Part shown: positions 10,783-38,605 of the stretch, one piece after another
Layout of the letters: every line of letters begins with the position of its first letter
Numbering within the stretch: position 1 is the stretch's first letter
NCBI GenBank assembly: GCA_963678065.2
Contig: CAXXVZ010000002.1
Coordinates: 416,001-480,000 of the forward strand
Origin: Treponemataceae bacterium
GTDB taxonomy: Bacteria; Spirochaetota; Spirochaetia; Treponematales; Rectinemataceae
Direction of reading: 5' to 3'
Length of the DNA: 64,000 nt
Made by a program: the position numbers and the translations under genes
The notes under the pieces: generated by a model
Database searches by the model: none
The model's input: only the letters and a program-made list of their open reading frames with translations
What the model was told of the DNA's origin: nothing

Positions 10783-10846
10783 TGACAGATCTAAAGAGTT
10801 TAATCAACAGCAAAAATTGACCGCGTAAGACTTTGATAGATAGCAT
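10783..10846 (+). promoter_or_regulatory. 18-bp directional site 1 plus promoter
   Basis: TGACAGATCTAAAGAGTT (10783-10800), then TTGACC (10817)-18-TAGCAT. Confidence 0.6.
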
Positions 10847-10882
10847 CTACCGTATTTGAAAGATCGTCATCAGGAGGCGTGT

Positions 10883-12190
10883 ATGAAGAGATCACTTTTC
10901 TTGGCTTTTGCCGCGATCATGTTCTTCTCGTTGATATCCGATATCACGGCGCAGTCGGCGAAAAAAGTCGCACTGACCTGGTGGGTGTATCCCCGCTTTA
11001 CGACCGCGGGCAAGGACCCCGGCGTCTACGAGCAGGAGATCGCCGACCGGTACTGCAAGGAGAATCCGAACGTCTCCATAAAGGTCGAGGCGCTCTCCTA
11101 CAACGGCGGGCCAGCCAAGGTCAATGTCGCGATCGCCACAGACTCCATGCCAGACTTGCTGATCGACGATCCGATCCGGCTCATCGCGGACTATGCGGCC
11201 CGGGGCGCCCTCGTTCCGATGGACGATGTCATCGACTTGAAGACCATCCAGCCCGGCTTCCTCGCGGACTGCTACATGGATGGCAAGATGTATATGTACC
11301 CAATTTCGGCGCTATGCTACTGCGTCGGCGTAAACAAAACAGCCTTCGAGAAGGCCAAGGCCCTCGACAAGTTGCCGCTAAACAGGCCTGATCGCAGCTG
11401 GACCTTCGACGAGTACACGAAGGCCCTCGAGGCCGTCAAAGGCTTGCCGGGCATGTACGCGACCGCCTTGTGGGCGGGGAACGAGCAGGGAGACTCCGCC
11501 GGGAGGCTGCTCGTCCAGAACTGGGGCGCGCAGCTCTTCTCTGCCGGCAACAAGCGCATCACCCTGAACGACGCGGCGGGCGTCAAGGGCATGGAGTGGC
11601 TCCTCAGTCTGAAGACGAAGGGACTGCTGGCGCCCGGCGTCGAGAGCCTGACCATGACGGACATGATCGACCTCTTCAACCAGGGGCGAGTCGCCGTTGG
11701 AACCTACTATTCGTCCGACCAATACGCGGTGCTCCTGGGCATGCAGAAGGAGAAGAAGGCCGCCGATTTCGAGCTGGTCTTCTTCCCCTATCCGACGGCG
11801 CCAGGGGTCAAGTCTGTGACCACCCTCGCGCAGACCGGGATCTCCGTGTTCAAGAACACCGATCCCGACAAGATCGCGGCGGCGAAGAAGTTCGCGAAAT
11901 GGGTCTGCACGACACCCGATATCGTCGCGATGTCGCAGGGACATATCCCCGCGGTCAAAGGCCTGCCCGCCCTTGGCGATACCAAGAACTGGTCCGAGCT
12001 CAAACTCATGGAGAAGTGGGGCGCCGCGAACTCAGTCTATTCCGGTCGCACGCTGAAGGGATTGTCCGAGATCAGGACCTTCTGGTTCCCGAATCTCCAA
12101 GCTATGTTCACCGGCGCGAAGACCCCCAAGCAGGCCCTCGACGACTTCGTGACAAGCGCGAACAAGGTGATGGAGAAGTATTACCCGTAA
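10883..12190 (+). CDS. Carbohydrate ABC transporter substrate-binding protein (CUT1)
   Basis: Signal peptide; SBP_bac_1-like 'MPDLL' and 'DGKMYMYP'; AGGAGG RBS. Confidence 0.9.
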   Translation: MKRSLFLAFAAIMFFSLISDITAQSAKKVALTWWVYPRFTTAGKDPGVYEQEIADRYCKENPNVSIKVEALSYNGGPAKVNVAIATDSMPDLLIDDPIRLIADYAARGALVPMDDVIDLKTIQPGFLADCYMDGKMYMYPISALCYCVGVNKTAFEKAKALDKLPLNRPDRSWTFDEYTKALEAVKGLPGMYATALWAGNEQGDSAGRLLVQNWGAQLFSAGNKRITLNDAAGVKGMEWLLSLKTKGLLAPGVESLTMTDMIDLFNQGRVAVGTYYSSDQYAVLLGMQKEKKAADFELVFFPYPTAPGVKSVTTLAQTGISVFKNTDPDKIAAAKKFAKWVCTTPDIVAMSQGHIPAVKGLPALGDTKNWSELKLMEKWGAANSVYSGRTLKGLSEIRTFWFPNLQAMFTGAKTPKQALDDFVTSANKVMEKYYP

Positions 12191-12213
12191 GTGCTTTCGA
12201 CGATCGCTGGCAT

Positions 12214-12269
12214 CGTACCCGGCGCCGAACCCTGTTTGCCGCAAGGCTGCGAGGGGGGCGCCGGGTACG
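12214..12269. other. GC-rich hairpin downstream of the SBP gene
   Basis: 13-bp arms CGTACCCGGCGCC ... GGCGCCGGGTACG. Confidence 0.5.
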
Positions 12270-12488
12270 CTCGTTCCGCGCAGCCCTCGAGCGGGGAAGT
12301 GCCTATGACATCGAGGGAGAGGGACAGCGCGCCCGGGCGCATGGCTCGCTTGAAAAGGCTTGAGAGCGCCTGCGGAAAGGGTCGCTCGGGACATACGGCA
12401 TTTTCGCGGGGCACACGAACCCGAGGGCTCTACGAGTCCGGAATGCTCCGCAAGCCCTCCGCGCCCGTCCGCCGCATGATCGGCGCGA

Positions 12489-12550
12489 TGACATTTCTAA
12501 AGAGCAGATGAGCCTGTCGCTTTGGCATATCCATGGGATTGCCCTATAGT
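12489..12550 (+). promoter_or_regulatory. 18-bp directional site 2 plus internal promoter
   Basis: TGACATTTCTAAAGAGCA (12489-12506), then TTGGCA (12522)-17-TATAGT. Confidence 0.7.
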
Positions 12551-12593
12551 GTGCCTGTCCAGAATGCCAGCGAAGCCGACGAGGAGCCAGCGG

Positions 12594-13478
12594 GTGCGTG
12601 AAAGAAAAGCGCGCGTCACGGGCAAGGAGATCGCGGCCGGCTATATCTTCGTCCTGCCGGCACTGCTATTCTTTCTTGTCTTTCAGATTTATCCCCTCTT
12701 CCGAACCGTGGCCCTGAGCCTCATGGAATACGCCGGCAAGTCCTTCCGTTTCGTCGGCCTCCAGAACTACCGCGACCTCGCCGCGAATCCCGTCTTCCTG
12801 AAATCGATCATCAACTCGACCCTCTTCGTCGTCCTGAACGTGCCTGTAATCATCGTTTTCGCCCTCGCCATTTCCTTCTTCATCTACCGCAAGTCGACAA
12901 GGTCACTCGGGTTCTACCGCATCGCCTTCTACCTTCCCTCGGTCGCGTCGATCGTCACGATCTGCATTGTCTGGAAGAACATGCTGAACCCGATAATGGG
13001 CCTGATCAACTATCTGACCGGCAGGATGGGAATACCGCCCATCAACTGGCTCGGGAGCAATTACGCCCTGGGTACCCTCTCCCTCATACTCTTCTCGATC
13101 AACGTCGGTATGTCGATCATTCTCTACATCGCCGCGATGCAGGGAATCTCTCACGAGATAACCGAAGCGGCGCTGATCGACGGCGCGAACAAGTGGACCC
13201 TCTTCGTGAGAATCATCATCCCTCTCGTGGGGCCGACGACGCTATTTGTCATAGTCATCAACACGATCAACCTCTTTCAGTCATTCGCCCTCGTGAATCT
13301 CATGACCAAGGGCGGTCCCTTCTATTCCACGACGACGATCGTATTCCAGCTCTACGAGACGGCTTTCGGACTCCAGAAATTCGGACTCGCCTCGGCGATG
13401 GGCATCTGTCTCGGAGTGATCATATCGCTTGTTTCGGTATTCCAGTTCAAGATCGCCGACAGGACCACAGGGTCCTGA
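12594..13478 (+). CDS. Carbohydrate ABC permease
   Basis: EAA motif 'EAALIDGA'; GTG start after GAGGAG (start uncertain). Confidence 0.9.
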   Translation: MRERKARVTGKEIAAGYIFVLPALLFFLVFQIYPLFRTVALSLMEYAGKSFRFVGLQNYRDLAANPVFLKSIINSTLFVVLNVPVIIVFALAISFFIYRKSTRSLGFYRIAFYLPSVASIVTICIVWKNMLNPIMGLINYLTGRMGIPPINWLGSNYALGTLSLILFSINVGMSIILYIAAMQGISHEITEAALIDGANKWTLFVRIIIPLVGPTTLFVIVINTINLFQSFALVNLMTKGGPFYSTTTIVFQLYETAFGLQKFGLASAMGICLGVIISLVSVFQFKIADRTTGS

Positions 13479-13500
13479 TCCGGTGGAAGGGAAAAGCCTC

Positions 13501-14349
13501 ATGCGCCAGGTACACGGAACGATAGACGGGACACGATGGAAGATCGCCGAGCGGGTCACCTCGGCGCTGATTTTCATTATCGCGCTGCTCTTCCTGTTCC
13601 CCTTCTACTGGACCTTGACGGGCGGGTTCAAGACTCGCTTTGACCTCATGGGCTTCGTCCCGCAATGGTTCCCCCTGCACCCGACGCTCGACAACTTCAC
13701 CAAGATATTCTCGAAGACCGGCGGACGCTGGCTCTTCAACAGCGTAGTCATGGCCAGTTCCTACACATTCCTGACGGTCCTCGTGTGCACGATGGCAGGC
13801 TACTCCCTCGCGAAGAAGCGCTTCCCGGGCAGGCAGATGATCTTCTGGATGTTCATCATGGTGATGGCGATACCGAAGAACACCATGCTCGTCCCCCTCT
13901 TCCTCCTCATAAAGGACCTCAGGATCGTGGACAACTATCTCGGCGTGATCCTTCCCTTCATAGCATGGCCCTTCGGCATATTCCTGATGAGGCAGTTCAC
14001 GCAGACCCTTCCCGACGAGCTCTTCGACGCAGCGAAGATAGACGGAGCTTCCGAATATTATATCTTCGTCAAGATAGTCGTTCCCCTCGTCGTTCCGGGG
14101 ATTATAAGTCTCTCGGTCTTTGCCTTCAGGGACAGCTGGAACGACTACTTCTGGCAACTCATCGCCCTGTCCCGCGGATCGATGAAGACTCTGCCATTGG
14201 GTATAGCGGCCATGATGGACGAGACTTTCGTCGAATACGGAATGCTCATGGCGGGGAGCGTTGTCGCCTCTCTTCCGATCATCATTGTCTTCCTCGTCTT
14301 CCAGAGGTATTTCACGGCGGGCATCGCGATGAGTGCCGTCAAAGGTTGA
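13501..14349 (+). CDS. Carbohydrate ABC permease
   Basis: 'DAAKIDGA', 'WNDYFW', C-terminal 'AVKG'. Confidence 0.9.
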   Translation: MRQVHGTIDGTRWKIAERVTSALIFIIALLFLFPFYWTLTGGFKTRFDLMGFVPQWFPLHPTLDNFTKIFSKTGGRWLFNSVVMASSYTFLTVLVCTMAGYSLAKKRFPGRQMIFWMFIMVMAIPKNTMLVPLFLLIKDLRIVDNYLGVILPFIAWPFGIFLMRQFTQTLPDELFDAAKIDGASEYYIFVKIVVPLVVPGIISLSVFAFRDSWNDYFWQLIALSRGSMKTLPLGIAAMMDETFVEYGMLMAGSVVASLPIIIVFLVFQRYFTAGIAMSAVKG

Positions 14350-14629
14350 AAGCAGCTCATCGCTCCGAGGGGCCCATCCTGCCCGGCGAAGGATCGCTCC
14401 GGCGAGCCAGGAGGATGCGCATAGTCACCATGCGCCACGAGGAGGACAGCCTCCCTGTCCGCGACCTCGCCCGAAGTCTCCGGAAGCGACATGAAGAATA
14501 TGAGTTCGCTCAACGGCCTCGGACGCGAAGTCGATTGCCAGAGGCGATGAGACAGTCGAAGCGGGTTAGCCGGTTCGGCACTCGTTCCCGTCTTCGCGGA
14601 TATGATGCAAGTGCATTTGGAGGTGGAAA

Positions 14630-15838
14630 ATGAAGGTATCAGGACTTGAGACGATCAGGCTCGGGGAATTCCCCAGCATCCTTTTTCTCCGGGTTCACAC
14701 GGATGAAGGCCTCATCGGCCTCGGCGAGAACTGCGTCGGCGTGGAGGCTGTCGAAGCCTTCATCCACGAAACGATCGCGCCGCGCATCCTGGGGAAGGAT
14801 CCCCTCGCGATTACGGCGATACACGAATCCCTTCACCAGGACTTCATAGGATTCGCCGGTTCCTCGGCCGCGGTGCGTGGCGCATCGAGCCTGGACATAG
14901 CCTTGTGGGACATTCTGGGACAGGCGACATCCTGTCCGATCTACCAACTCCTGGGCGGCAAGGTCCGCGACCGCATCCGCGTCTACAACACCTGCGCAGG
15001 CTCCGCCTACGCGCGCGGCTCGTCGAATATAGACCGGAACAGGAAAGCCCAGATCGGCACGCCGACAGGCGTGGATTTCGAGGACTTGATAGGTTTCATC
15101 AATTCGCCCGACGAGCTTGTGGCCAGCCTGAAATCTATGGGCATGACGGCGATGAAGATCTGGCCATTCGACGAGGCGGCGATGCGCTCGGGCGGGCAGA
15201 CGATTTACAAATCGGACCTGCGCGACGGCGTGGACATCTTCCGCAGGGCGCGCGAGGCCGCAGGTCCGGATTTCGACATCATGCTCGAGATGCATTCGCT
15301 CTGGTCCTGTCCGGCGGCCACGATGATCGCGGGGGCGGTCTCCGAATACTCGCCATTCTGGATAGAGGACGCGCTGCGGCACGAAAGCACCGAGGCGCTG
15401 GTCCGGTTCAAGCGCTCAACCTCCATCCCGGTGACAGTTGGGGAGACGACCGGCACGAGGTGGGACTATCATCGCCTGCTCTCCTCCCGGGCGGTGGATC
15501 ATGTGATGTTCGATCCTGGTTGGGTGGGGGGTATCACCGAGGCGGTGAAGGTCATCGCGCTCGCGTCGACCTACGGTGTTCCGGTCGCGCCGCACGACTG
15601 CACGGGTCCCGTCGTGCTCACGGTAGGCACCCACCTGGGAATCGCGTCCCCGACCATCGAACTTCAGGAAATGGTGCGCAATTTCTATTTCGGCTGGTAC
15701 GCCGATATGCTGACGGAGCTCCCGGCCTATTCGGACGGCCACATCTCCCCCCCATCCGGGCCCGGGCTGGGCACCGCCCTGCAGCCAGGGATAAGCGAAC
15801 GGAGCGACGCGATCGTGCGGTGGAGCAGGCTTGGGTGA
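14630..15838 (+). CDS. Mandelate racemase/enolase superfamily acid-sugar dehydratase
   Basis: 'DIALWDILG...PIYQLLGG', 'MKIWPFD', metal ligands E/E/E, 'PHDCTGP'. Confidence 0.9.
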   Translation: MKVSGLETIRLGEFPSILFLRVHTDEGLIGLGENCVGVEAVEAFIHETIAPRILGKDPLAITAIHESLHQDFIGFAGSSAAVRGASSLDIALWDILGQATSCPIYQLLGGKVRDRIRVYNTCAGSAYARGSSNIDRNRKAQIGTPTGVDFEDLIGFINSPDELVASLKSMGMTAMKIWPFDEAAMRSGGQTIYKSDLRDGVDIFRRAREAAGPDFDIMLEMHSLWSCPAATMIAGAVSEYSPFWIEDALRHESTEALVRFKRSTSIPVTVGETTGTRWDYHRLLSSRAVDHVMFDPGWVGGITEAVKVIALASTYGVPVAPHDCTGPVVLTVGTHLGIASPTIELQEMVRNFYFGWYADMLTELPAYSDGHISPPSGPGLGTALQPGISERSDAIVRWSRLG

Positions 15839-15910
15839 GAAACCCGCGCGGCGAAGACCGCGCGGCACTCCGGCGACACTGGTACAAGGATGGGGATCAG
15901 GAAGCCCCGC

Positions 15911-16963
15911 TCATCTTCCCAACCCCTCCTCGAACATGGCGACGGCGTTTCCCATCGGCGTGTCCAGTTCGAGAAAGTGGGTAGGCGCGAGGATGTAGCC
16001 CGAGCCGCCCGAAGCGGCCACGATGCGTCGCGTTTCCTTTCGGACCTCATCGGGATTCCCGTGGGCCAATATGCTCTGGAGGCCTACCATACCGTGAAAA
16101 ACGATATGCCTCCCGAAATCCCTGAACAGCCCTCCGGCGTCCATACCCTCGGCCTCTACCTGTACGGCCTGGTAGATATCGAGACCCAGATCGATCCAAT
16201 GGGGGATGTGGGCGCGGTTCGATCCGCAGGAGTGGAGCATCACTTTCGCGCCATATTTGTGGCCAAGGTCGATGAAAGCCCTGAGCTTGGGCGCGAAGAC
16301 TGTTTTCCACGAATCTATGTTCATGAGGGGTCCGTTCTGGGTTCCGTAGTCGTCGCCAATCCAGAGCACGTCGATCTTGCCATTGGCCTTTCGCAGCGCC
16401 CGTTCGGCGACTTCGAGGAGTATCTCCTGCCGTTTCTCCAGGAGGGCGAGTCCCACCGGATCTTCGAGGGCTATATCGACGAGGACTTGCTCCATGCCCC
16501 GTCCGAAGGATGTGCCATTGATGAGGTCCATTATTCCTGGATGGCCAAACACGACGACATACTTGTCGCGGATGCGGTCGCAGCGGCTCTCAATGTCCGA
16601 AAAGTCAAAAAGGTCGGGCGAGGGCCACGGATACGCCTCGACCTCGTCCATGGACGAGATGTCCGCGAAAGGCCGATACTCGACCTCATCGTAGGTTCCA
16701 TAGATGTTGACGACGGGACGGCGACGGACTCCCCACATGTCCGTGAAGAAACCGCGCTCATCCTTTTCATAAGGAGCGCGGAAGTCGTGATGCATGAGGT
16801 GGCGGAAGTCTATGTCGAGGAGCTCAAGAGCCTCGTCGTAGCTGCCGGCCCCGAGGTGGCGGACGAGGCGCTCGGGAACTTGTCCCTCGGCGATGCAATC
16901 GATGGGCGGCCTGTCACAGCGTTCATGCTTCATCGTCGCCTCGAAACGCGAGCGGTGAGTCAT
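15911..16963 (-). CDS. Uroporphyrinogen decarboxylase/MtaA-CmuA family protein
   Basis: 'GDDYGTQNG', 'HSCG', 'GYILAPTH'. Confidence 0.85.
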   Translation of the reverse strand: MTHRSRFEATMKHERCDRPPIDCIAEGQVPERLVRHLGAGSYDEALELLDIDFRHLMHHDFRAPYEKDERGFFTDMWGVRRRPVVNIYGTYDEVEYRPFADISSMDEVEAYPWPSPDLFDFSDIESRCDRIRDKYVVVFGHPGIMDLINGTSFGRGMEQVLVDIALEDPVGLALLEKRQEILLEVAERALRKANGKIDVLWIGDDYGTQNGPLMNIDSWKTVFAPKLRAFIDLGHKYGAKVMLHSCGSNRAHIPHWIDLGLDIYQAVQVEAEGMDAGGLFRDFGRHIVFHGMVGLQSILAHGNPDEVRKETRRIVAASGGSGYILAPTHFLELDTPMGNAVAMFEEGLGR

Positions 16964-17997
16964 CGTTGAATCCGCCCCTCTGTCTCGCCGGCCGCCAGGG
17001 CGCGAACTTCGTCGAGCGAACAGAGATTGAAGTCGCCGGGAATCGAGTGTTTGAGGCAGGAGGCGGCTACGGCGAACTCGATGCAGTCCTGGAAGGAAAG
17101 CCCCGAGAGCATCGAGTAGATCAGACCGCCGGAGAAGGAATCCCCTCCGCCGACCCTGTCCACGATCGGTTCGATCATGTATTTCCTGCTCGAATAAACA
17201 GTTCTTCCATCGCAGAGCATGCCGCTCCAGCCATTCGCGGAGGCCGAGATGCTCTGTCTGAGCGTGGTCGCGACTGACTTGAATCCGAACTTCGCGGCGA
17301 GGCGCTTCGCGAGTTCGGCATAGGACTCTTCGGGGAGCAGACCCTTCGAGGAATCGCTGCTTTCGGCCTTCATGCCGAAGACTTTCTCGGCGTCCTCCTC
17401 GTTGCCGATGAGAACATCGACACGCTCCATGATGCCGGGCATGATGCGCTGGGCTTCCTGCGGCGACCAGAGCTTGGCGCGGTAGTTGAGGTCACAGCTG
17501 ACGGTGAGGCCGGCAGCCTTGGCCGCGACCAGGGCTTCGGATAGCCGCGCCCGCGGCTTCTCTCCGAGGGCGGGCAGTGTTCCCGAGAAGTGGAACCAGT
17601 CCTTGCCGGCGCATATCTCGTCCCAGTCGTAGTCTCCCGGACCCGAATCGCAGATGGCGCTCCGGGAGCGGTCGTATATGATCTTGGAGGGCCGCTGAGC
17701 CGCGCCGGTCTCGAGGTAGAAGAGGCCGAGTCGTTCACCGCCCCTCGCCACGTGGTCGACATTGACTCTGAAACGGGAGAGGTAGTCCAGACAGGCCTGT
17801 CCTATCTCGTTCGCGGGAACCTTGGAGACCACATAGGCCTCCATGCCGAAGTTGACAAGCGATACCGCGGCGTTCGCTTCAGCCCCCGTGTAGCGGACAT
17901 CGAAACTGTTCGCCTGGACGAAACGCTCGACGCCGGGCGGCGCGAGTCTGAGGAGGAGTTCTCCGAAGGTGACGATTTTCTTCTTGTCCGTGTCCAT
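16960..17997 (-). CDS. kdgK: 2-keto-3-deoxygluconate kinase (PfkB family)
   Basis: 'FGELLLRL', 'DLNYR', 'DRVGGGDSF'; AGGAGA RBS. Confidence 0.85.
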   Translation of the reverse strand: MDTDKKKIVTFGELLLRLAPPGVERFVQANSFDVRYTGAEANAAVSLVNFGMEAYVVSKVPANEIGQACLDYLSRFRVNVDHVARGGERLGLFYLETGAAQRPSKIIYDRSRSAICDSGPGDYDWDEICAGKDWFHFSGTLPALGEKPRARLSEALVAAKAAGLTVSCDLNYRAKLWSPQEAQRIMPGIMERVDVLIGNEEDAEKVFGMKAESSDSSKGLLPEESYAELAKRLAAKFGFKSVATTLRQSISASANGWSGMLCDGRTVYSSRKYMIEPIVDRVGGGDSFSGGLIYSMLSGLSFQDCIEFAVAASCLKHSIPGDFNLCSLDEVRALAAGETEGRIQR

Positions 17998-18044
17998 CCC
18001 GTTCTCCTGTGTTCGAGCCCGCCCGGCGGATGTCCGCTCGGACA

Positions 18045-21432: not shown

Positions 21433-21494
21433 ATGCTAAACGAGCCACATTCCTGGGTCAAAATGCCGGATGAATACACTCGATAGAATTGTCA
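21433..21494 (-). promoter_or_regulatory. 18-bp directional site 3 plus promoter
   Basis: Minus strand TGACAATTCTATCGAGTG (21494-21477), then TTGACC (21461)-17-TAGCAT. Confidence 0.75.
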
Positions 21495-24181: not shown

Positions 24182-25327
24182 TCAGACTGCGGTGTTCAGG
24201 GGATACTTGCCGGCTGCGAGCGCCTCCTCGAACAGCGCAATCACGTTTTCCGGTGGAACGTCGGGCTGGATGCAATGCACGGCGGAGCAGATGTAGCCGC
24301 CTCCTGGCCCCAGGTCCGCAATCCGGCGGCGAACCTCCGCGCGCACCTCCGCCGGCGTGCCTCTGGGCAGGACGGCCTGCGTGTCGATCCCTCCGCAGAA
24401 GGAAAGTCGCCTGCCAAACTCCCGTTTCAGGCGGGCCGTGTCTCCCATGTCGCCCGCCGAGACCTGCACCGGGTTCAGGAGCTCCACGCCGAGTTCGATC
24501 AGGTCGCCGATCAGGGGATAGATGTTCCCGTCGGTGTGGTAGAAGATTTTTGCTTTCGTCTTTCGCCTGATCGCGGACATGATCTCCGCGTGGAAGGGCT
24601 TGATGAGCCCGCGATACATGCCCGGCGAGATCAAGAGGGTATCCTGGCCCGCCAGATCGTCGCCCATGACAAGGACGTCGATGCAGTCGCCGGCCTCTTT
24701 GAGCAATCCTTCCACGGCCGCGAGCTGGAGGTCGGTCACCTTGCGCATCAGCGCTCTGGCGAAGTCCGGGTCCCCCGCCAGGTCCATCATCCAGTTCTCG
24801 ATGCCGCGCAGCATGCCGCAGTACTCGAAGGGCGACACGCCAGAAAGCGCCACGACGGCGTAGCCGGAATCCTGGATCTCCCGCGCCCTGGCCGCCATGC
24901 CGGCGAAGCGGACAGGATTGGCGAGGTCAGGCCAGGGGTGCCGCGCGATGTCGTCGATCGCGGCCTGCCCGAGAGGTGGCTTGGAGATCTCGTAATAGTG
25001 GCCGCCGGGCGCGCGAGACCAGGGGATGCCCCAGCCGTCCACGAAGGCGTCGCCGGGCAGTTCCCGCTCGTTGACCGTCGGCGCCGGGCCTGCCGTCAAC
25101 ATGCGCCCGTCGGATCCGAAACGCCGCATGACTTCCTCGTCGAGCAGGGAGTACTGGAGGGCGCGCCAGAAAACCTTGGTCTGGCTACTGATATGGAGGT
25201 GAGCCTTGAGACGATCGTAGGCCGCCGCCAGCATGGTTGTGGCGCCGGATGCGCCGATGAAAATCGGCACACGGTCCGGCTCCTCGTGATTCAAGGCGCA
25301 GAGCACCCGTTCGCGCGAGGTCATCAT
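24182..25327 (-). CDS. UroD/MtaA-CmuA family protein
   Basis: 'HEEPDRVP', 'GDDLAGQ', 'HTDG', 'HCIQPDVPPEN'. Confidence 0.88.
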   Translation of the reverse strand: MMTSRERVLCALNHEEPDRVPIFIGASGATTMLAAAYDRLKAHLHISSQTKVFWRALQYSLLDEEVMRRFGSDGRMLTAGPAPTVNERELPGDAFVDGWGIPWSRAPGGHYYEISKPPLGQAAIDDIARHPWPDLANPVRFAGMAARAREIQDSGYAVVALSGVSPFEYCGMLRGIENWMMDLAGDPDFARALMRKVTDLQLAAVEGLLKEAGDCIDVLVMGDDLAGQDTLLISPGMYRGLIKPFHAEIMSAIRRKTKAKIFYHTDGNIYPLIGDLIELGVELLNPVQVSAGDMGDTARLKREFGRRLSFCGGIDTQAVLPRGTPAEVRAEVRRRIADLGPGGGYICSAVHCIQPDVPPENVIALFEEALAAGKYPLNTAV

Positions 25328-26385: not shown

Positions 26386-26407
26386 ATTCTCTCCTGCTTC
26401 TTTCAGT

Positions 26408-29623: not shown

Positions 29624-30733
29624 TCAGTAAGTTCCGATTTCCAGACCCCGCTCGACGAAATGACGGTAGGTTGCGTACTCGACCTTATGGCTCACGCTGT
29701 GGTCGCTCTGCAGCACATACCCGCTGCCCGCCATGGCCGCCGGAAGCTTTTTCTCCAGCTCGGCATCGACCAGCGCGAGGTCGTTCGTTTCCAGGACCCT
29801 TTCGTCCATCCCTCCGATCAGGGCTATCTTTTCGCCGAAATTGCGCTTGATCCTCACGAGGTCCATGCCCGCTTTGACCTCGATGGGTTGGAGGCAATTG
29901 ATACCTGCCTCGATGAGATGCGGGATGAGCGCCTCGACGAAGCCGTCGCAGTGCAGGACGACAGGCAGGCCGCGGCTGTGGGCGAAATCGAAAAGTCGCT
30001 TGTGGGCGGGAAAGATAATCTCTCTATACATGTGCGGGGACATGAACGGAGTGCCCTTGTAGCCGAGATCATCCCAGACCCAGAGCCCATCCGGCAGGCC
30101 TTCTCTTTCGAATAGTATTTCCAGCAACTTGATCGTCACTTCGGCGAAAGTCAAAGCCATCTCGCTCACCCACTCGCCATCGAGGGCCATACCGGCGAGC
30201 AAGTGTTCGTGGCCGCACATCGGGGACATGAGATCGAAGGCTGCGATCGTACCGCAGTTGAAGAACAGGGAATCGCGCGCGCACTTCGCGCGCAGGTTCC
30301 GGTAGTGCTCGAAATCGATGCGCCGTTCGTAGCTCCGCTCGTCCCGCAGATGGGGCAGGATGAGCTCTTCCCAACTCTGACGATCCCTGACGGTGAAATC
30401 CACGTGCTCGGGAGCGCCCGAACCGTTTTTCAGCCAGCGCAGGTAGGCGCCATTCCCGTCCCGTATCAGCTTGACCGAATCATTCTCCTCGACGACGGTC
30501 TCGCCGGCATCGAGGTCGGCCATGAGATTCACCGCCTTCCACGACATCGGCGTGACTTCCCCGCCCGTCCGCCGGATGTCGAGCCCGAAATGGTCGCTCG
30601 CCGCATCCGGCCTTTCCAGATATCCCTGCTCTGTCCAAGCCTGAGCGGTTTCTCCCCAAAAGACCTCGAACAGGCCTATCCTGTCGACCGGTTCGTGCCT
30701 GAGTATCCGGGAGAATCTCTCCTTTCCGTCCAT
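29624..30733 (-). CDS. UroD/MtaA-CmuA family protein
   Basis: 'WDDLGYK', 'HCDG', 'SDHSV'. Confidence 0.85.
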   Translation of the reverse strand: MDGKERFSRILRHEPVDRIGLFEVFWGETAQAWTEQGYLERPDAASDHFGLDIRRTGGEVTPMSWKAVNLMADLDAGETVVEENDSVKLIRDGNGAYLRWLKNGSGAPEHVDFTVRDRQSWEELILPHLRDERSYERRIDFEHYRNLRAKCARDSLFFNCGTIAAFDLMSPMCGHEHLLAGMALDGEWVSEMALTFAEVTIKLLEILFEREGLPDGLWVWDDLGYKGTPFMSPHMYREIIFPAHKRLFDFAHSRGLPVVLHCDGFVEALIPHLIEAGINCLQPIEVKAGMDLVRIKRNFGEKIALIGGMDERVLETNDLALVDAELEKKLPAAMAGSGYVLQSDHSVSHKVEYATYRHFVERGLEIGTY

Positions 30734-30793: not shown

Positions 30794-31567
30794 TTACGAA
30801 CCTTTTTCCTTGGCGCCCCGAACCGCGGGTGTTTTTTCCGCCGGATTTGCCTGGCGTTCCGTGTCGTCGGTCTGTTGGGCTATGAGGGTGAGATTGGACT
30901 CCGATACCTCGATGTGGCGCGTCATCGCAGCGCGCGCGAGCTCCGGGTTTTTCTCCCTGAGCGCCTCGATAATGCGCATATGGCCATTCTTCGCCTCCTC
31001 GAGCGCACGGGCGGAATAGGCGTAGTCGAAGAGGTTGATCATGATGCTCTTGAGCGGCTGCAGGAGGGAACTGAAGAGCGGATTCCTGGTTACGCTCGCG
31101 ATGGTCTGGTGGAATTTGAAATCGAGCAGTGTCATCTTCTCCCGGACATGGAGGTTCGCCCTCATCTCACAGGCGATGTCCTCCAGGTTTTCGATGTCCT
31201 CTTTGGTCGCGCGAAGGGCCGCCAGCTCGCAGGCCTTGACCTCGAGAACGGATCGTATCTCGAAGTAATCCCTGATCGTCAAATCGTTCAGGACCATAAA
31301 GCGGTTCATCATGTCGCTGAGATCGGTCGGCTTGGGTTTGGTGATGTAGCTGCCGTCTCCGTTCTTCACCTCAAGCAGGCCGCGGGCTTTGACGTTGCGC
31401 AGGGCTTCCCGCATGATATTCCGGCTGACGCCGAACTGATCGGCCAGACTCTGTTCGGAAGGTAGTTTTTCCCCCACCTTGAGCCTGCCGCACAGGATGG
31501 CCTCTTCCAGCGAGGCTGCGACCATTTCGTGTTTGTTGTTGGTTTGAATCTTGGCAAAACTCGCCAT
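30794..31567 (-). CDS. FadR/GntR family regulator
   Basis: 'LPSEQSLADQFGVSR..REAL'; FCD domain 'DFKFH'. Confidence 0.92.
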   Translation of the reverse strand: MASFAKIQTNNKHEMVAASLEEAILCGRLKVGEKLPSEQSLADQFGVSRNIMREALRNVKARGLLEVKNGDGSYITKPKPTDLSDMMNRFMVLNDLTIRDYFEIRSVLEVKACELAALRATKEDIENLEDIACEMRANLHVREKMTLLDFKFHQTIASVTRNPLFSSLLQPLKSIMINLFDYAYSARALEEAKNGHMRIIEALREKNPELARAAMTRHIEVSESNLTLIAQQTDDTERQANPAEKTPAVRGAKEKGS

Positions 31568-31587
31568 CCGATTCCCTCTCTTTGAAA

Positions 31588-31639
31588 CCTATAGACCTGT
31601 AGGATAGGTCAAGCTACACCCGTTTTGCGTATCTGGCAA
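31588..31639 (-). promoter_or_regulatory. Promoter and FadR-type operator of the fadR-like gene
   Basis: TTGCCA-17-TAGCTT on the minus strand, followed by the inverted repeat GACCT-n7-AGGTC (31594-31610). Confidence 0.55.
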
Positions 31640-31730
31640 GAAGATTTTTTGGCTTTTCGGACTTTTCAGGATCGCAGCTGGATTTTTTATCGTGCGTAGA
31701 GAATACGTAAGCCGCCGGGATTGACGAGCC

Positions 31731-32396: not shown

Positions 32397-32418
32397 GGTA
32401 TTCCCTCCGGATGACCGA

Positions 32419-32479
32419 ATCATAAACCCGGAATGATCCCTTGGCCAGAAAAGCCCACGCTCACTCGATAGAAATGTCA
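32419..32479 (-). promoter_or_regulatory. 18-bp directional site 4 plus promoter
   Basis: Minus strand TGACATTTCTATCGAGTG (32479-32462), then TGGCCA (32447)-17-TATGAT. Confidence 0.7.
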
Positions 32480-32514
32480 GGGCGAAGAGAATCCCCGCGC
32501 CGGTCATTTCTGCT

Positions 32515-32577
32515 GGTCATTTCTAATGAGTGTTATCACCTGCGCCGCTTTATCATGAAGGCACCATGTTGTATCGT
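32515..32577 (+). promoter_or_regulatory. 18-bp directional site 5 plus weak promoter
   Basis: GGTCATTTCTAATGAGTG (32515-32532), with a partial tandem copy GGTCATTTCT at 32502. Candidate promoter TTTATC (32549)-17-TATCGT is ambiguous. Confidence 0.55.
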
Positions 32578-32613
32578 CCAAGCCATGCAGATGAAAAGAG
32601 CTGGAGGATCCGA

Positions 32614-33408
32614 ATGAAAGTCGACTTGTCGGGGCGCGTAGCCATCATCACGGGCGCCTCCGGGGGGATCGGGAAGGCTATCGCCCGTTGTCTCCTGGAG
32701 AACGGGGCCATCGTCGTCAACGCCGATCTCGACAGGGAAGGCGGCCAAAAGGCGCTCGAGGAACTTTCCGGGATCGGCCCCTTCGAGTACCGCGACACGG
32801 ACGTAGCATCGATGGCGAGTGTCCAGGCCCTCGTCGACGGTGTCATAAAGGACCATGGCAGGATCGACATACTCGTGAACAACGCGGGCGTCAATATTGC
32901 CGGGCACAAGCGTGCCGACATCGACGGGTTTCCGGACGACGAGTGGGAACGCATCCTCTCGGTGGACCTGGACGGCGTGTACAACTGTTCGAAGCTCGTG
33001 GCACGGGAAATGATCGCGAAGTCATCGGGAAGGATCGTCAACATCGGCTCGGTCTTCGGCCTCGTTCCCGCGCGGAAGCAGATCGCATTCACGGCGGCCA
33101 AGGCCGCCGTGCACAACATGTCCCGCTCCATGGCGCTCGAACTCGCGCCGCACGGGATCCTCGTGAACGCCGTCGCTCCGGGATCGATCCAGCTTGAAGG
33201 CACGAAGAGCCTGTTCTACGTCAAGGGAGCCGACTTCGACGACATGACGAGCCGCATGCTTTCTCACATTCCCCTCGGTCGTCCCGGCGTGCCCGAGGAG
33301 ATCGCGGGGATCGTCGCCTTCCTCTGCGCAAAGGAGAGTTCCTACATCACAGGTCAGGTCATCGCCGTGGACGGAGGATGGACCTGTGGATATACGAGGG
33401 ATTTCTAG
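32614..33408 (+). CDS. SDR family oxidoreductase
   Basis: 'TGASGGIG', 'NNAG'; the YxxxK position reads FTAAK. Confidence 0.9.
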
Positions 33409-33504
33409 TCAGCATTGACAGGAGCGGTTGAGTACGGTATTTATTAGCGTTGCCCGCCGTATGCGCCCCCAGCGTGCGCCAACAGTCCGAGAGGTACGCC
33501 CATC

Positions 33505-34176
33505 ATGCTTGCACCGGTCGACAAGAGTTCACTTTCCGTCGAAGTCGCCAACAATATCCGCTTGGGCATACTTAGTGGAAGAATCCAGCCGGGACAAAAA
33601 CTCCTCGAGCAGGAACTTTCCGAACAGCTGAACACGAGCAGGGGACCGATCAGGGATGCATTCATACGCCTCGAGCAGGAAGGTCTGGTCCTCCGGGAGC
33701 CCAACCGGAGCGTCAAGGTCGTCATCATGACCGAGGAGGACATCGAGGAGATCCACAGTCTCAGGCTCTCGATGGAGCAGTTGGCCCTGCGCTACATCTG
33801 CAGCGGCCGCTCAAAACCGGACGTTTCGCGCTTGCGGACCATCGTCGATAAACTTCGCACCAGCATCACCGAAGGCGCCGTTCTGGAACAAGCCGTCGAA
33901 ATGGACCTCGAATTCCACGAGGAAATTGTGCGGGCTTCGGGCCACAGACGGCTCCACAAGCTCTGGCTGAGCCTCAAGCCTCAGATCGGTTTTCTCATCT
34001 ATACGAAGAACATCCATAATGTCTACAACTTTGCCGGCGGTTCAGACCAACACGAAGAGCTTATCGAAGCGATCGAAAAAATGGAAATCGCGAAATGCGA
34101 GAAAATAATCCGCGAGCATCTTAACAGCGTCCTCAATACTTTGCTCGAAAGCTATCGTGCGAAACCCGGCGCCTGA
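33505..34176 (+). CDS. GntR (FCD) family regulator
   Basis: 'LNTSRGPIRDAF', 'DLEFH'; TTGACA at 33415 upstream. Confidence 0.9.
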   Translation: MLAPVDKSSLSVEVANNIRLGILSGRIQPGQKLLEQELSEQLNTSRGPIRDAFIRLEQEGLVLREPNRSVKVVIMTEEDIEEIHSLRLSMEQLALRYICSGRSKPDVSRLRTIVDKLRTSITEGAVLEQAVEMDLEFHEEIVRASGHRRLHKLWLSLKPQIGFLIYTKNIHNVYNFAGGSDQHEELIEAIEKMEIAKCEKIIREHLNSVLNTLLESYRAKPGA

Positions 34177-34260
34177 CCGGGTGTAAGGCGCTCTGCCTCG
34201 TTCTCTGCCTCGTCTCCTTCCTGAACGACAGCGTCGGGCATTCCGCTGTGGGTCCGGGCG

Positions 34261-34323
34261 GGACATTTCTAAGGAGCAGGGCGAGCCTGCACCTTGTGGT
34301 TCCCGGACCTGCAAACCTATCAT
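34261..34323 (+). promoter_or_regulatory. 18-bp directional site 6 plus promoter (likely leaderless mRNA)
   Basis: GGACATTTCTAAGGAGCA (34261-34278), then TTGTGG (34294)-18-TATCAT; ATG 7 nt later. Confidence 0.65.
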
Positions 34324-34329
34324 TCGGCC

Positions 34330-35334
34330 ATGAAGAGCCATATCAGCGCGGTGCTCGATCGGGAAACCCTCCTCTTGCTGTACCGGAAGATGGTCGAGAT
34401 ACGCAAATGCGAAGAGCGCCTTATCAAGTCCTTCCAGGCAGGGCTCATTTACGGCGGCTGCCACACCTACATCGGAGAGGAGCCGATCGCGACAGGCCTG
34501 AGCGCCCACCTCAGGAAAGACGACTATGTATTCGGAACGCATCGAGGTCATGGGCACGCGATCGCCAAGGGGCTGGAACCTTTCGAACTGTTCGCGGAGC
34601 TCTACGGTCGCTCAGGCGGCGCTTCCGGCGGCCGCGGAGGCAGCATGCACCTGTTCAAGCCCGAAATAGGACTCATGGGCACGAACGGCATCGTGGGACC
34701 AAGTATCCTTCTCGCGACGGGCGCCGCCTATGCCTTCAAGCTCAACAGGACCGATCGCGTCGCCGTGGCCTATTTCGGCGACGGGGCTGTCAACAACGGG
34801 GCATTCCACGAAGGCTGCAACATGGCTGCCAATTGGGAGCTTCCCGTCATACTCGTGTGCGAGAACAATCTCTACGCGACTGAGGTTCCCTTCTCCTCGG
34901 TGACGAAGCAGACCAGCGTCGTCAAGCGGGCCGCGGGCTATGGGCTCAGGTGCGCCGTCGCCGATGGCACCGACATGCTCGAAGTCTACGCCAGAGCCGG
35001 TGATGCGATCGCGCTCGCCCGCGCGGGCAAGGGCCCGACCCTCCTCGAGTTCAAGACCTATCGGCATCGTTCGCACGCCGAGGGCATGCCCGAGTCCGGC
35101 TATCGGTCCAGGGAAGAGGTCGAGCACTGGAAAAAACGCGATCCGATCAAGCGGTTCTCGGAGTACATCACGGCGGGTTCGATCGCGAGTGCCGATGAAT
35201 TGGCCGCCATTGACCGGGAGATCGCGAAGAAGATCGATGTTTCCAATGCGGAGGCCTTGAAGAGCCCTTCCCCCGATCCATCGACCGAGTTCGACCATGT
35301 CCTCGCGGACCCATCAGGAGGAGCCCGTGCGTGA
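34330..35334 (+). CDS. TPP-dependent dehydrogenase E1 alpha (acetoin/pyruvate DH-like)
   Basis: 'HRGHGH', 'GGSMH', TPP motif 'GDGA...ENN'. Confidence 0.9.
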   Translation: MKSHISAVLDRETLLLLYRKMVEIRKCEERLIKSFQAGLIYGGCHTYIGEEPIATGLSAHLRKDDYVFGTHRGHGHAIAKGLEPFELFAELYGRSGGASGGRGGSMHLFKPEIGLMGTNGIVGPSILLATGAAYAFKLNRTDRVAVAYFGDGAVNNGAFHEGCNMAANWELPVILVCENNLYATEVPFSSVTKQTSVVKRAAGYGLRCAVADGTDMLEVYARAGDAIALARAGKGPTLLEFKTYRHRSHAEGMPESGYRSREEVEHWKKRDPIKRFSEYITAGSIASADELAAIDREIAKKIDVSNAEALKSPSPDPSTEFDHVLADPSGGARA

Positions 35335-36304
35335 GCTCAGCTATATCGAGGCGGCGCGCGAGGCCCTCACCGAGGAGATGGCCCGCGATTCCACGATCTT
35401 CGTCGTCGGCGAGGGCATAGGTCGCCGTGGCGGAAATTTTAGCACGACGGTCGGCTTGTTCGATCGCTATGGCCCCGAGCGCCTGTGCGACACTCCCATC
35501 AGCGAGCGCGGATTCACGACCATGTGCATCGGCGCGGCGGCGGCCGGCGCACGGCCTGTGGTTGACTGCATGTTCGTCGACTTCGCCCTCGACGCGATCA
35601 GCGATCTCGTGAACCAGGCATCAAAGATGCGGTGGATGAGCGGCGGCCGTGTCAGCGTACCGATCGTCGTCAGAGCATGTATGGGCATCTTCTCCTCGGG
35701 AGCGGCGCACCATTCAGGAAACTATTACTCGTTCTTTGCCCACATCCCGGGTTTTCATGTCGTTCTACCCGCCACGCCCGCCGATGCGAAGGGTCTTCTC
35801 AAGACATCCCTTCGCTCGAAGGACCCCGTTATTTTTCTCGAGCACCGTGCCCTGCTCGGATTGAAGGGACCGGTGCCCGAGGGAGAATATGCCATTCCCT
35901 TCGGCCAGGCGGCTGTCGTTCGCGAGGGACGGGATATGACGATTGTGGCCATCTCGGCGATGGTGCCGCGCAGCATCGAGGCCGCGCAGGTTCTCGAAAA
36001 AGAAGGCATCTCGGTAGAGATCATCGATCCACGGACCGTGGCTCCCCTCGACATAGAAACTATTCGCCGGTCGGTCTCGAAAACAGGCAGGCTGCTCATC
36101 GTCGAGGAGGACTACGCGCCCTGCAGCGTGGCCGCGGAAATCGCCGCGCGCATCTGCGACGAGTCCTTCGATGATCTCGATGCGCCGATCCGCAGGCTTC
36201 ATGCCGGTTTCGCGCCGGCGCCCTATAGTCCCTCGCTCGAGAAAGCCGTAATCATCAGCGCCGATTCCATCGTCCGCAGCGTCCGCGAGCTGCGGGCGGA
36301 ATGA
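35327..36304 (+). CDS. TPP-dependent dehydrogenase E1 beta
   Basis: 'DTPISE', 'DAKGLL', 'IDPRTVAPLD'. Confidence 0.9.
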   Translation: MRELSYIEAAREALTEEMARDSTIFVVGEGIGRRGGNFSTTVGLFDRYGPERLCDTPISERGFTTMCIGAAAAGARPVVDCMFVDFALDAISDLVNQASKMRWMSGGRVSVPIVVRACMGIFSSGAAHHSGNYYSFFAHIPGFHVVLPATPADAKGLLKTSLRSKDPVIFLEHRALLGLKGPVPEGEYAIPFGQAAVVREGRDMTIVAISAMVPRSIEAAQVLEKEGISVEIIDPRTVAPLDIETIRRSVSKTGRLLIVEEDYAPCSVAAEIAARICDESFDDLDAPIRRLHAGFAPAPYSPSLEKAVIISADSIVRSVRELRAE

Positions 36305-36313
36305 GGTCATCCC

Positions 36314-37429
36314 ATGGCTAGCGACGTCATCATTCCCCGCATCGGGTGGTCGATGGAGAAGGGCGTATTCGTCGAATGGCTCAGGAAGGAGGGAGACGCA
36401 ATCGCTGTTGGCGATGCGCTGTTCCTCATCGAAGCCGACAAGGCAAACGCGGAAGTCGTCTCGGAGGAGGCGGGCGTCCTGCACATCTTTCCGGGACGGG
36501 CGAAGCAGGGTGACGAACTGATGGTCGGCACCGTGATCGGCTGCCTCCTCGATGCGGGTGAGGCCCTGCCCGGAGACGTTGCGCCAGCAGGCGCGGCGCC
36601 CGCGGAGGTTCCTGCAGGAGCTGCACTGCCCGCCAGCCCGGCTGCGATGCCCCCCGGGCCTCCCGGACAAGCGCCAGAGCATGGATCCAGGATCGTTTCC
36701 TCCCCGCGCGCCCGCCGGGTATCCAGGGAATTGGGTGTAGATTTGATCGGGCTTGCAGGCTCAGGCAAGGGCGGCCGGATAATCGAGCGCGATGTCCGGA
36801 GAGCGGTGACCGCGCCGGAACGGAGGCAGGCATCGGAGTATCTGGCGGACCGGACTTCGATCCTGTCCACCATCCGCCTGACCGTGGACGCGACCGAACT
36901 CGTGTCGCTTCTCGAACGGCTTTGCAGCTCGGGGGCCGACGCCCGTCTCGCACCGGGCCGCTATCGGGGGCTTCTCGTCAAGTTCGCCGTTTCGGCCTAT
37001 CAACATGCCTTTGACGCAGCGAATGCCGGAGCGGGCGCCGACATCGCCTACGGTTCCTTAGTGGATGAGAGGATCTCCTGGGACTCCCTCCGCGGTGCGC
37101 GGCGAAAAGGTCTGGATGAACTTGCCCTCGAACTCGATTCGGGCGAAGGCAAAGCAGGCAGTCTTTCGGGTCTGGAATCTTTCGCCTTCATCGATCTTGG
37201 CGCCTTCGGCGTCGACGAGTACATTCCCGGCGTCGAGATCCCCTCCAGTCTACTCCTCTGTTTCGGCCGACTCATCGAGGGAAAGGTGCAGGAGAAAGTC
37301 CAGTCCCGCACCCAAACCCTGAAAATCGGCCTCTCCTTCAAGGAGAATCTCGTCAGCTTTGCGCAGGCGTCCCGATTCCTGGGAAACCTCGGATCCGCAC
37401 TCCTCGACCCTGTTCTCTGGCTCCTCTGA
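36314..37429 (+). CDS. E2-like protein: lipoyl and E1/E3-binding domains with a degenerate acyltransferase domain
   Basis: Lipoyl motif 'EADKA'; PSBD 'SPRARR...GSGKGGRI...DV'; the catalytic DHRxxDG position reads 'FKENLVSF'. Confidence 0.75.
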   Translation: MASDVIIPRIGWSMEKGVFVEWLRKEGDAIAVGDALFLIEADKANAEVVSEEAGVLHIFPGRAKQGDELMVGTVIGCLLDAGEALPGDVAPAGAAPAEVPAGAALPASPAAMPPGPPGQAPEHGSRIVSSPRARRVSRELGVDLIGLAGSGKGGRIIERDVRRAVTAPERRQASEYLADRTSILSTIRLTVDATELVSLLERLCSSGADARLAPGRYRGLLVKFAVSAYQHAFDAANAGAGADIAYGSLVDERISWDSLRGARRKGLDELALELDSGEGKAGSLSGLESFAFIDLGAFGVDEYIPGVEIPSSLLLCFGRLIEGKVQEKVQSRTQTLKIGLSFKENLVSFAQASRFLGNLGSALLDPVLWLL

Positions 37430-37530
37430 ATCCATGCGCGCGATGACCGCGCACGAATGATTCAGGGCATGTTCGCGCACAGAGAGGCCGATCGCGTCGT
37501 CATGTGGGACTTCCCGCGGCCACCGATGGT

Positions 37531-38502
37531 CTAGCCGGCCACCCCATTCACGATATTCGGGAGTTTCTGTCTCCTGATCGCGATGGCGACAGTCTTCGCC
37601 GCGTCGGTACGGAGCTTGAGGACAGCCTGGGGACTCGCCGACGCAATGTGCGAATTGATGATCACGTTCTCCATGCCGACGATCGGGTGGTCGTGGTTGA
37701 TCGGCTCTGGATCGGTAACGTCCATCGCGGCGGCGGCTATCTGGCCCGAGCGGAGCGCGGCGACGAGGTCATCGGTGCGCACCAAGGTGCCCCGCGAAAT
37801 GTTGACGAAAAGGCAACCTCGCTTCATCTTCGCGATCGACGATGCGTTGATCATGTACCGTGTCGTCTCCGTGCTGGGGCAGTGGAGGGTGACTATATCG
37901 CTCTGCGCATAGAGTTCGTCGAGGGTGACGGGCTCTACTCCATCGGCGCGCATCTTCGCCGCGTCGACGGCCGGATCGAAGGCAATCAGCTTGCACTTGA
38001 AGGGCCTGAGCCTTAGTGCAACTTCCCTGCCGATCTTGCCATAGGCAACGATGCCGACGGTCTGGTCCTTGAGGCTCCGCATGGCCTCGATAGGCACGGC
38101 GAGGCCCCATTCCCCATTGCGGACTTTCACGCCGTTTTGGGTGATCCTTCGGCAGAGGTCAAGTATCATCGCAAGCGTATGGTCGGCCACTTCATCCGTG
38201 CAGAAATCGGGGATGTTGCAGACAGGTATGCCCTTCGCCGCCGCGGCCTTGAGGTCGACATTGTCTACGCCGATGCCATAGCGCACGATAACCTTGCAAC
38301 GCTTCATCGCGCCGATGATGTCGGCGTTGACTGGCGCGAACTGGGTTATGACATAGTCCGCATCCTCCACGAGGGCCGCGAGGGCGGCCGGATCCTTGCC
38401 GGACTTGTTGGCTTTGAGTTCGCAACCGAGGGGTTCGATGATCGTTCGCTCGATCTCGACATCGTCGAAGGCATAATCGGTGATAACTGCTTTGGGCATC
38501 AT
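37531..38502 (-). CDS. D-isomer-specific 2-hydroxyacid dehydrogenase (CtBP-like)
   Basis: 'RYGIGVDNVD', 'GKIG', 'NISRG', 'MDV...EP', 'HIA'. Confidence 0.9.
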   Translation of the reverse strand: MMPKAVITDYAFDDVEIERTIIEPLGCELKANKSGKDPAALAALVEDADYVITQFAPVNADIIGAMKRCKVIVRYGIGVDNVDLKAAAAKGIPVCNIPDFCTDEVADHTLAMILDLCRRITQNGVKVRNGEWGLAVPIEAMRSLKDQTVGIVAYGKIGREVALRLRPFKCKLIAFDPAVDAAKMRADGVEPVTLDELYAQSDIVTLHCPSTETTRYMINASSIAKMKRGCLFVNISRGTLVRTDDLVAALRSGQIAAAAMDVTDPEPINHDHPIVGMENVIINSHIASASPQAVLKLRTDAAKTVAIAIRRQKLPNIVNGVAG

Positions 38503-38566
38503 ATTCTCCTTGCGATCATCCCCTATCATCCGCGGCTTCGGCGAGTCAATGAGAAAGCGCCCCCGT

Positions 38567-38605
38567 CACTCGATAGAAATGTCAGCATGACAATTCTATC
38601 GAGTG
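38567..38605. promoter_or_regulatory. Back-to-back 18-bp directional sites 7 and 8 at a divergent promoter
   Basis: CACTCGATAGAAATGTCA-gca-TGACAATTCTATCGAGTG. Plus promoter TTGACC (38621)-17-TAGCAT; minus -35 TTGACT at 38549 with a weak -10. Confidence 0.75.

Follow-up and report, generated by a model that had tools for sequence, protein, structure and literature searches.

Eight 18-bp sequences stand at the heads of the operons of a cluster for sugar-acid uptake and catabolism (10883–43396) within a 64,000-nt stretch of a Treponemataceae bacterium genome, hereafter the window, and we were curious to know which protein reads them and where they came from. A sequence-only reading had described them as class I activator sites, and it named neither the binder nor the origin: the 18-mers match end repeats of the IS1202 family, and the gene of the likely binder, a DDE-dead transposase, lies just left of the range considered there. 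We think it likely that the 18-mers are IS1202-type end repeats that serve as operators of this adjacent dead transposase, which is predicted to be a class I-like activator.

Eight 18-bp sites in a sugar-acid cluster

All eight 18-mers are present with the positions and strands first given for them, and the cluster behind them is the predicted regulon. Site 1 (10783–10800, +; -35 offset 34) heads the gene of solute-binding protein 1 and diverges from the dead transposase gene; it is the weakest of the eight, and the divergent arrangement is likewise found in genome G745. Site 2 (12489–12506, +; offset 33) precedes permease genes and an enolase-family dehydratase gene, and site 3 (21477–21494, −; offset 33) precedes ABC transporter 2, a KDG kinase gene and a UroD-like gene. 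The KDPG aldolase gene and a long leftward run are headed by site 4 (32462–32479, −; offset 32), an SDR gene and the gene of a GntR/FCD regulator by site 5 (32515–32532, +; offset 34), and the E1-alpha, E1-beta and E2 genes by site 6 (34261–34278, +; offset 33). Sites 7 (38567–38584, −) and 8 (38588–38605, +; offset 33) stand back to back, the former heading a 2-hydroxyacid dehydrogenase gene with no clear promoter, the latter UxaE-like, transaldolase, SDR, YhcH-like and FAH genes. Sites 3 and 8 belong to a single duplicated promoter, with downstream sequences 80% identical (other pairs at most 62%).

A pattern built from the eight sites matches those eight only in the genome, a test that is circular. 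A matrix whose training set consisted solely of 17 sites of three other genomes ranked seven of the eight as its top seven hits in the 5.27-Mb genome and site 1 as 13th. The earlier statement that copies are missing outside this island holds in this genome. A degenerate copy ahead of the gntR TTGACA (33397) scored 2.7 bits and was dropped. When 400 genomes of the order were searched with the strict motif, 36 had one to three hits and no clusters. The description of the sites as non-palindromic was borne out by a symmetry search, in which neither a dyad nor a direct repeat was found in the 18-mer.

Homologous clusters occur in G745, G1022 and G1112, all of them spirochaete genomes, and each of these genomes combines the cluster and the sites with one member of the transposase family, again dead. 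Since G1022 and G1112 belong to one genus, the four genomes represent three independent lineages. The UxaE-like gene was found in 0 of 40 relatives.

IS1202-type end repeats and a DDE-dead transposase

The promoter motif matches the paired subterminal repeats of intact IS1202-family (ISTde1-type) elements. In nine intact relatives, two tandem, outward-pointing copies 24–26 bp apart were found at 13 of 18 ends, with the consensus TGACATTTCTATTGAGTT; the ends of five elements were set by multi-copy alignment and those of one by its 17-bp target duplication. The columns of the IS-end and window motifs correlate at 0.75, whereas 20,000 column shuffles gave at most 0.56; the comparison is partly circular because the core pattern used to choose the end copies was itself similar to the motif. 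A matrix built from IS ends only returned seven of the eight sites as the top seven hits in the window (site 1 came 14th, at 8.0 bits), and one IS end from genome G488 shares all but 2 of its 18 bases with the commonest site of the window. According to the family's description, the internal region of the IR generally serves transposase binding, and the ISTde1 subgroup of the IS1202 family, formerly ISNCY, corresponds to NCBIfam NF033594 (bioRxiv 10.1101/2022.12.17.520857).

The candidate binder is encoded at 9465–10622 (−). This IS1202/ISNCY-derived protein of 385 aa scores 148 bits against NF033594, below the curated cut-off of 250, and resembles the IS1202/ISTde1 transposases in its size (~385 aa) and in the helix-turn-helix (HTH) at its N terminus, followed by an RNase H fold, while the subterminal repeats of its intact relatives correspond to the 18-bp motif. 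Unlike those transposases, it retains none of the D, D, E triad, and its gene is single-copy; the IS-end matrix gave no site pair at either end of the gene, and element ends are not definable. The closest folds to its predicted model are IstA, TnsB and MuA. These three proteins bind asymmetric end repeats.

Proteins in which no more than one of D, D and E is retained account for 42 of 131 aligned homologues and form one group with a FastTree support of 1.0, which was recovered by IQ-TREE with 18 dead and 26 active proteins (100/100). The HTH is better conserved than the catalytic part in this DDE-dead clade: the first HTH has a mean identity of 0.62 and the RNase H part one of 0.45, compared with 0.47 and 0.66 among active proteins. 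For the dead transposases of G1022 and G1112, dN/dS is ~0.31 overall and falls to ~0.19 over the HTH; synonymous sites are close to saturation.

Could the 18-mers be mere relics of IS ends that have no binder, or be the targets of some unrelated protein, for example an AraC regulator encoded at another locus? IS ends can carry outward -35 boxes, the tip hexamer being TTGACA at three right ends, and the genome has 50 AraC-domain matches. However, none of these matches lies within ~70 kb of the window, and an AraC/XylS reader linked to the regulon was accordingly dropped as a candidate. Moreover, the repeats of IS ends are paired, at 18 and 42–44 bp from the tip -35, whereas the promoter sites occur one at a time, scattered over host promoters at a new spacing of 31–37 bp. 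Between strains, 0 of 18 site bases differ at one G745-type promoter, against 6 of 15 spacer bases. Among the 18 of 27 differences listed for strain contigs of run X18, a weak basis, site changes fall at positions 3 and 6 only, to letters that the motif allows. We regard both versions of this explanation as improbable.

Promoter geometry and mode of action

Offsets of 18–80 bp from site start to -35 were scanned with an approximate E. coli sigma-70 matrix. The best predicted promoter lies 32–34 bp from the site start in seven of the eight window sites and at 31–37 bp for 13 of 18 sites in the other three genomes, that is, fixed orientation and a 31–37 offset (a range picked after the data had been seen) are found in 20 of 26 sites; the 18 exclude four weaker G745 hits, one with a -35 at 37 and three without a promoter. 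By chance, the geometry was seen in 81 of 1500 random windows holding a promoter of at least 8 bits (5.4%), and in 0 of 29 chance pattern matches from other genomes. The exceptions are five of the 18 sites elsewhere and site 7, where TTGACT at offset 35 has no convincing -10 box. The near-fixed distance noted earlier was therefore confirmed for seven sites, but the promoter call at site 7 was not.

At site 6, and at the corresponding site in G745, the E1-alpha ATG comes 6 nt after the -10 box, and such a leaderless layout would place the site centre near -60.5. Activation by CRP is best near -61.5 and -71.5 (PMC4132738), and a class I position, upstream of the -35 and centred near -61 or -71, was found relative to predicted promoters for seven of eight sites here and 13 of 18 elsewhere. 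The dead transposase is predicted to bind the 18-mers through the HTH domains that it has kept and, from a position near -60, to activate transcription at the sigma-70 promoters that follow, with RNA polymerase putatively recruited via alphaCTD.

The dead transposase might also bind the sites without being a class I activator, and instead repress, bend or bridge DNA or aid another factor. Transposases synapse and bend ends, and several sites would suit such a role: sites 7 and 8 are arranged back to back, as are pairs in G1022 and G1112, the G1022 site at 544183 lies immediately ahead of a ribosome-binding site and not upstream of a promoter, and a second candidate promoter, TTGCAA-18-AATAAT, lies immediately upstream of site 1. 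Good -35 boxes at several targets point the same way. However, the shared orientation and offset of those 20 sites, outside the core promoter, together with -35 boxes that are missing or poor behind several sites (TGGCCA, TTTATC, TTGTGG), are what an upstream activator predicts, and we consider the non-activator role unlikely. The class I position proposed from the sequence is partly supported: orientation and spacing are fixed across four genomes, and several -35 boxes are poor, but the site at G1022:544183 does not conform.

The GntR/FCD regulator and related systems

The GntR/FCD regulator (33505–34176, +) is co-inherited with the cluster, and its predicted target is not the 18-mer but a TTGT-N2-ACAA palindrome. 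Of 14 distant loci, four were checked, selected post hoc; all encode homologues that share its LNTSRGP(V/I)R helix, and TTGT-N2-ACAA lies 76–112 bp before each of these genes. In each of the four genomes, a GntR-type palindrome is also present at the -35 of the dead transposase gene itself. In the window it is TTGTTAACAA (10719–10728), which together with a half-site (block 10712–10728) abuts the -35 of the predicted promoter TTGACA-17-TACCAT (10683–10711, −; TTGACA-17-TACAGT in G745); the same block occurs in G745, G1022 and G1112 (one mismatch). This palindrome fits the FadR-subfamily operator (TKGT/ACMA boxes, PMC4494728), whereas the 18-mer has no such dyad, in agreement with the earlier remark that the sites are unlike typical GntR operators.

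We doubt that the asymmetric site is read by the GntR/FCD protein itself, acting as an activator from -60 with the dead transposase as a passenger. Co-occurrence cannot tell the two proteins apart because both are found in all four genomes with sites, and there is precedent: in C. glutamicum, a site with its centre at -60 serves GntR1/2 in the activation of ptsG (PMC2230225), and the motifs recognized by some GntR proteins are non-symmetric (PMC4494728; NanR, PMC8012715). On the other hand, such a binder leaves the IS-end match unexplained, the same-helix homologues have the palindrome that is also present at the dead transposase promoter, and two homologues at 48–49% have no site on their short contigs. 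This makes the passenger explanation very improbable. At E 1e-40, a GntR orthologue was found in 0 of 400 genomes of the phylum, 0 of 68 of the family and 0 of 80 G745-related genomes, and the match in G1022 is split over two frames.

Two other GntR candidates were rejected. A FadR-type GntR gene (30794–31567, −) has its own promoter and dyad and is not needed for the motif; no orthologue of it was found in G745, G1022 or G1112 (best 27–34%), which argues against FadR or a FadR/GntR heterodimer as binder. Tandem double GntR-FCD proteins owed their high rank to summed domains only.

Returning to the dead transposase as activator, we propose that a sugar acid is the ligand of the GntR/FCD protein, which would control the dead transposase promoter through TTGT-N2-ACAA. 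A feedback cascade is suggested by the palindrome at the dead transposase -35 in four of four genomes and by the GntR/FCD gene lying behind a site: GntR would control the activator, which would turn on the catabolic operons and gntR.

Known systems share some of these features. As with CRP (PMC4132738) and C. glutamicum GntR1/2 (PMC2230225), the site has its centre near -60 and lies upstream of the -35; in contrast to these regulators, which act as dimers on near-palindromes, the window site is asymmetric and oriented, and polymerase contact is putative. TldR proteins, nuclease-dead TnpB regulators (PMC10705468), are likewise bacterial transposon proteins with a decayed active site and no element ends, kept for transcription control. 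Unlike TldR, which is RNA-guided, RuvC-derived and represses, the window DDE transposase is predicted to read DNA by its HTH and to activate. In the literature searched, no case of a bacterial DDE transposase turned transcription factor was found, TldR being the nearest.

In eukaryotes, transcription factors have arisen from DDE transposases, among them FHY3/FAR1, ZBED and SETMAR. They too reuse a transposase DNA-binding domain for gene control, sometimes on old element ends, but they derive from unrelated transposon families and serve RNA polymerase II, whereas a bacterial sigma-70 metabolic regulon is proposed here. Factors of this kind are treated in bioRxiv 10.64898/2026.08.24.746577. If our proposal is true, it would provide a bacterial counterpart of this route in which protein and binding sites are both traceable to a living IS family, and genes annotated 'ISNCY transposase' would include host regulators.

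It seems to us reasonably probable that this activator family stems from one domestication of an IS1202-type DDE transposase, in which catalysis was lost, end binding was kept, single repeats came to lie at -60 of host promoters, so forming metabolic regulons, and a GntR sensor supplied the ligand input. The inner repeat of the IS ends lies one helical turn further (42–44 bp) from the outward TTGACA tip, and activation may thus have begun at hybrid promoters made by the IS.

Sites and promoters of the sugar-acid cluster

All eight 18-mers described in the sequence-only reading are present in the window at the claimed positions and strands (gene-orientation starts 10783+, 12489+, 21494-, 32479-, 32515+, 34261+, 38584-, and 38588+), where they head transcription units of one sugar-acid cluster (~10.9-43.4 kb) comprising ABC transporters, KDG kinases, KDPG aldolases, a dehydratase, dehydrogenases, E1/E2 subunits, a UxaE-like gene, and a FAH-family hydrolase. 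Neither dyad nor repeat symmetry was found in the motif, in keeping with its description as non-palindromic, and the only clear duplicates are 21494 and 38588 (80% downstream identity). The claim that no copies lie outside this island also held: in the 5.27-Mb genome, a pattern from the eight sites matched those eight only, a circular test, and a matrix trained on 17 sites of three other genomes, hence non-circular, returned seven of the eight as its top seven matches, with 10783 ranking 13th.

Promoters were scanned at offsets (site start to -35 start) of 18-80 with an approximate sigma-70 matrix of E. coli frequencies. The near-fixed distance to the -35 box stood for seven of the eight sites, where the best predicted promoter starts at 32-34, and fell short at 38584, which has no convincing -10; centres predicted with this matrix (~-58.5 to -61.5) bear out the proposed position near -60. 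The chance rate of this geometry was 81/1500 (5.4%), and none of 29 chance pattern matches from other genomes had it. The -10 call at 34261 is supported by the E1-alpha ATG, which follows the box after 6 nt, likewise in the counterpart from the spirochaete genome G745. A second candidate promoter (TTGCAA-18-AATAAT; window 10746-10775, +) ends just before site 1, which could thus block one start and aid the next.

The first half of site 5 is tandemly duplicated (13 bp, window 32502-32514), a duplication absent from X18, a run of strain contigs. A YhcH/YjgK/YiaL-family gene (PF04074; window 41932-42390, +) lies between the SDR and FAH genes, and the cluster of another spirochaete, G1112, has one too. 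There are also four UroD/MtaA-like genes (window 15911-16963, 24182-25327, 29624-30733, and 45246-46277), with homologues recurring in the clusters of G1112 and its congener G1022.

The motif in other genomes and at IS ends

Among loci of named origin, the one closest to the window comes from a Spirochaetales MAG, which makes a spirochaete the probable host. Searching with the GntR/FCD gene (window 33505-34176, +) reached a second lineage, G745 (L058; strains L039 and L040), in which sites surround this gene at offsets 33 and 34. Between two strains, one G745 promoter differs at 0/18 site bases and 6/15 spacer bases. The dead transposase copy of G745 is divergent from a site heading a PEP synthase-like gene, the layout seen in the window before solute-binding protein 1. 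A screen of 390 class genomes added G1022 and G1112, two members of a single genus from another family; both carry the dead gene within homologous clusters, and in each, six of seven genome-wide pattern matches fall inside the cluster, the seventh in G1022 having the geometry and heading a KARI-like gene. The best predicted promoter lies at offset 31-37, a range set after the fact, for 13 of 18 sites in these three genomes, four weaker G745 matches being excluded (one with a -35 at 37, three without a promoter). Among the sites that do not fit are two at UxaE promoters lacking a -35 and G1022:544183, which lies immediately before a ribosome-binding site. One promoter preceding a solute-binding protein gene (L150:16291-16323; G1112:C7:39323, -) combines an 18-mer at offset 33 with a TTGTTAACAA palindrome against the -35.

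One intact relative, in G122 (L082), sits between 17-bp direct repeats, as long as those of the ISTde1 subgroup (bioRxiv 2022.12.17.520857), and carries two motif copies per end, as do multi-copy elements of G488, G121, G571, G415, and G430, whose ends were set by alignment of copies. The paired, outward-pointing motif, 24-26 bp apart, occurs at 13/18 ends of nine elements (consensus TGACATTTCTATTGAGTT). Compared column by column with the window motif, it correlates at 0.75, and 20,000 shuffles never exceeded 0.56. With the IS-only matrix, the top seven window matches were seven of the eight sites, and 10783 ranked 14th. The comparison is partly circular since IS-end copies were chosen with a core pattern resembling the window motif. 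Judged by sequence, the 18-bp motif is an IS end repeat. Elsewhere, a 15-bit copy at G000:C3:1827475 (-), directly followed by TTGACA as at an IS tip and without a second copy, is possibly a chance match or an end relic.

In intact elements, the tip hexamer (TTGACA at three right ends) lies 18 bp from the outer site and 42-44 bp from the inner one. The distance of 43-44 bp exceeds 33 bp by one helical turn, and CRP activates near -61.5 and also near -71.5 (PMC4132738); speculatively, the promoter spacing may derive from that of the inner site.

A dead transposase as candidate binder

The transposase encoded at window 9465-10622 (-) matches NF033594 below the cut-off and lacks D, D, and E. Among 131 aligned proteins, DDE is kept in 89, and the 42 keeping at most one residue fall in one group of the tree; when 18 dead and 26 active rows were taken from the alignment, the two kinds split with 100/100 support. 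The first HTH is better conserved than the RNase H part among dead proteins (0.62 and 0.45) and less well among active ones (0.47 and 0.66). The window genome, G745, G1022, and G1112 have one family member each, all open frames of 34-51% identity; dN/dS of the closest dead pair is ~0.31, and 0.19 in the HTH part, figures made rough by saturation. By these measures, the transposase appears dead yet kept. Its predicted structure (mean pLDDT 72.8) most resembles those of IstA, TnsB, and MuA. Whereas active IS1202 elements have DDE and ends, the window gene has neither, as no paired end sites were found flanking it. An aldehyde ferredoxin oxidoreductase frame (window 7697-9484, -) overlaps its end by 20 bp, which suggests co-transcription.

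Eukaryotes have transposase-derived factors. In open-access papers, we found no bacterial DDE-transposase-derived regulator; the nearest bacterial case found, TldR, is RNA-guided (PMC10705468).

GntR proteins as rival binder and upstream regulator

Two genes of the GntR family lie in the cluster, near which no AraC match was found. The GntR/FCD protein is a rival candidate for binding the 18-mer (see PMC8012715, PMC9728974) and for activating from -60, for which GntR precedent exists (PMC2230225). Its gene is present in 4/4 genomes, each time in a site-headed operon (split over two frames in G1022), and so co-occurs with the sites, as the dead transposase does. Co-occurrence alone being indecisive, the match of the 18-mer to IS ends decides for the dead transposase. 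FadR-subfamily GntR operators are dyads, unlike the 18-mer. The dead transposase is very likely the binder and, if it binds, likely an activator, predicted to work as class I activators do; that it both binds and activates is fairly probable overall.

In 4/4 genomes, a TTGTTAACA(A/G) palindrome abuts or overlaps a TTGACA that precedes the dead transposase gene; it agrees with the consensus of the FadR subfamily with a gap of 2 nt (PMC4494728). TTGT-N2-ACAA precedes the own gene in four distant GntR homologues with an identical recognition helix (4 checked of 14). We infer a cascade in which GntR would sense a sugar acid and control the dead transposase, which would in turn activate the operons and gntR.

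The FadR-type gene, of which no orthologue was found in G745, G1022, or G1112, is preceded by a promoter region of its own that contains a GACCT-N7-AGGTC dyad (window 31583-31610), probably an autoregulatory operator. Three proteins (P0170, P0182, and P0242; 457-523 aa) contain two GntR-FCD units in tandem, and two GntR homologues (48-49%) share a different element, GRATATCTTTKTAGA, upstream of their own promoters (L041:173-245 and L042:868-940).
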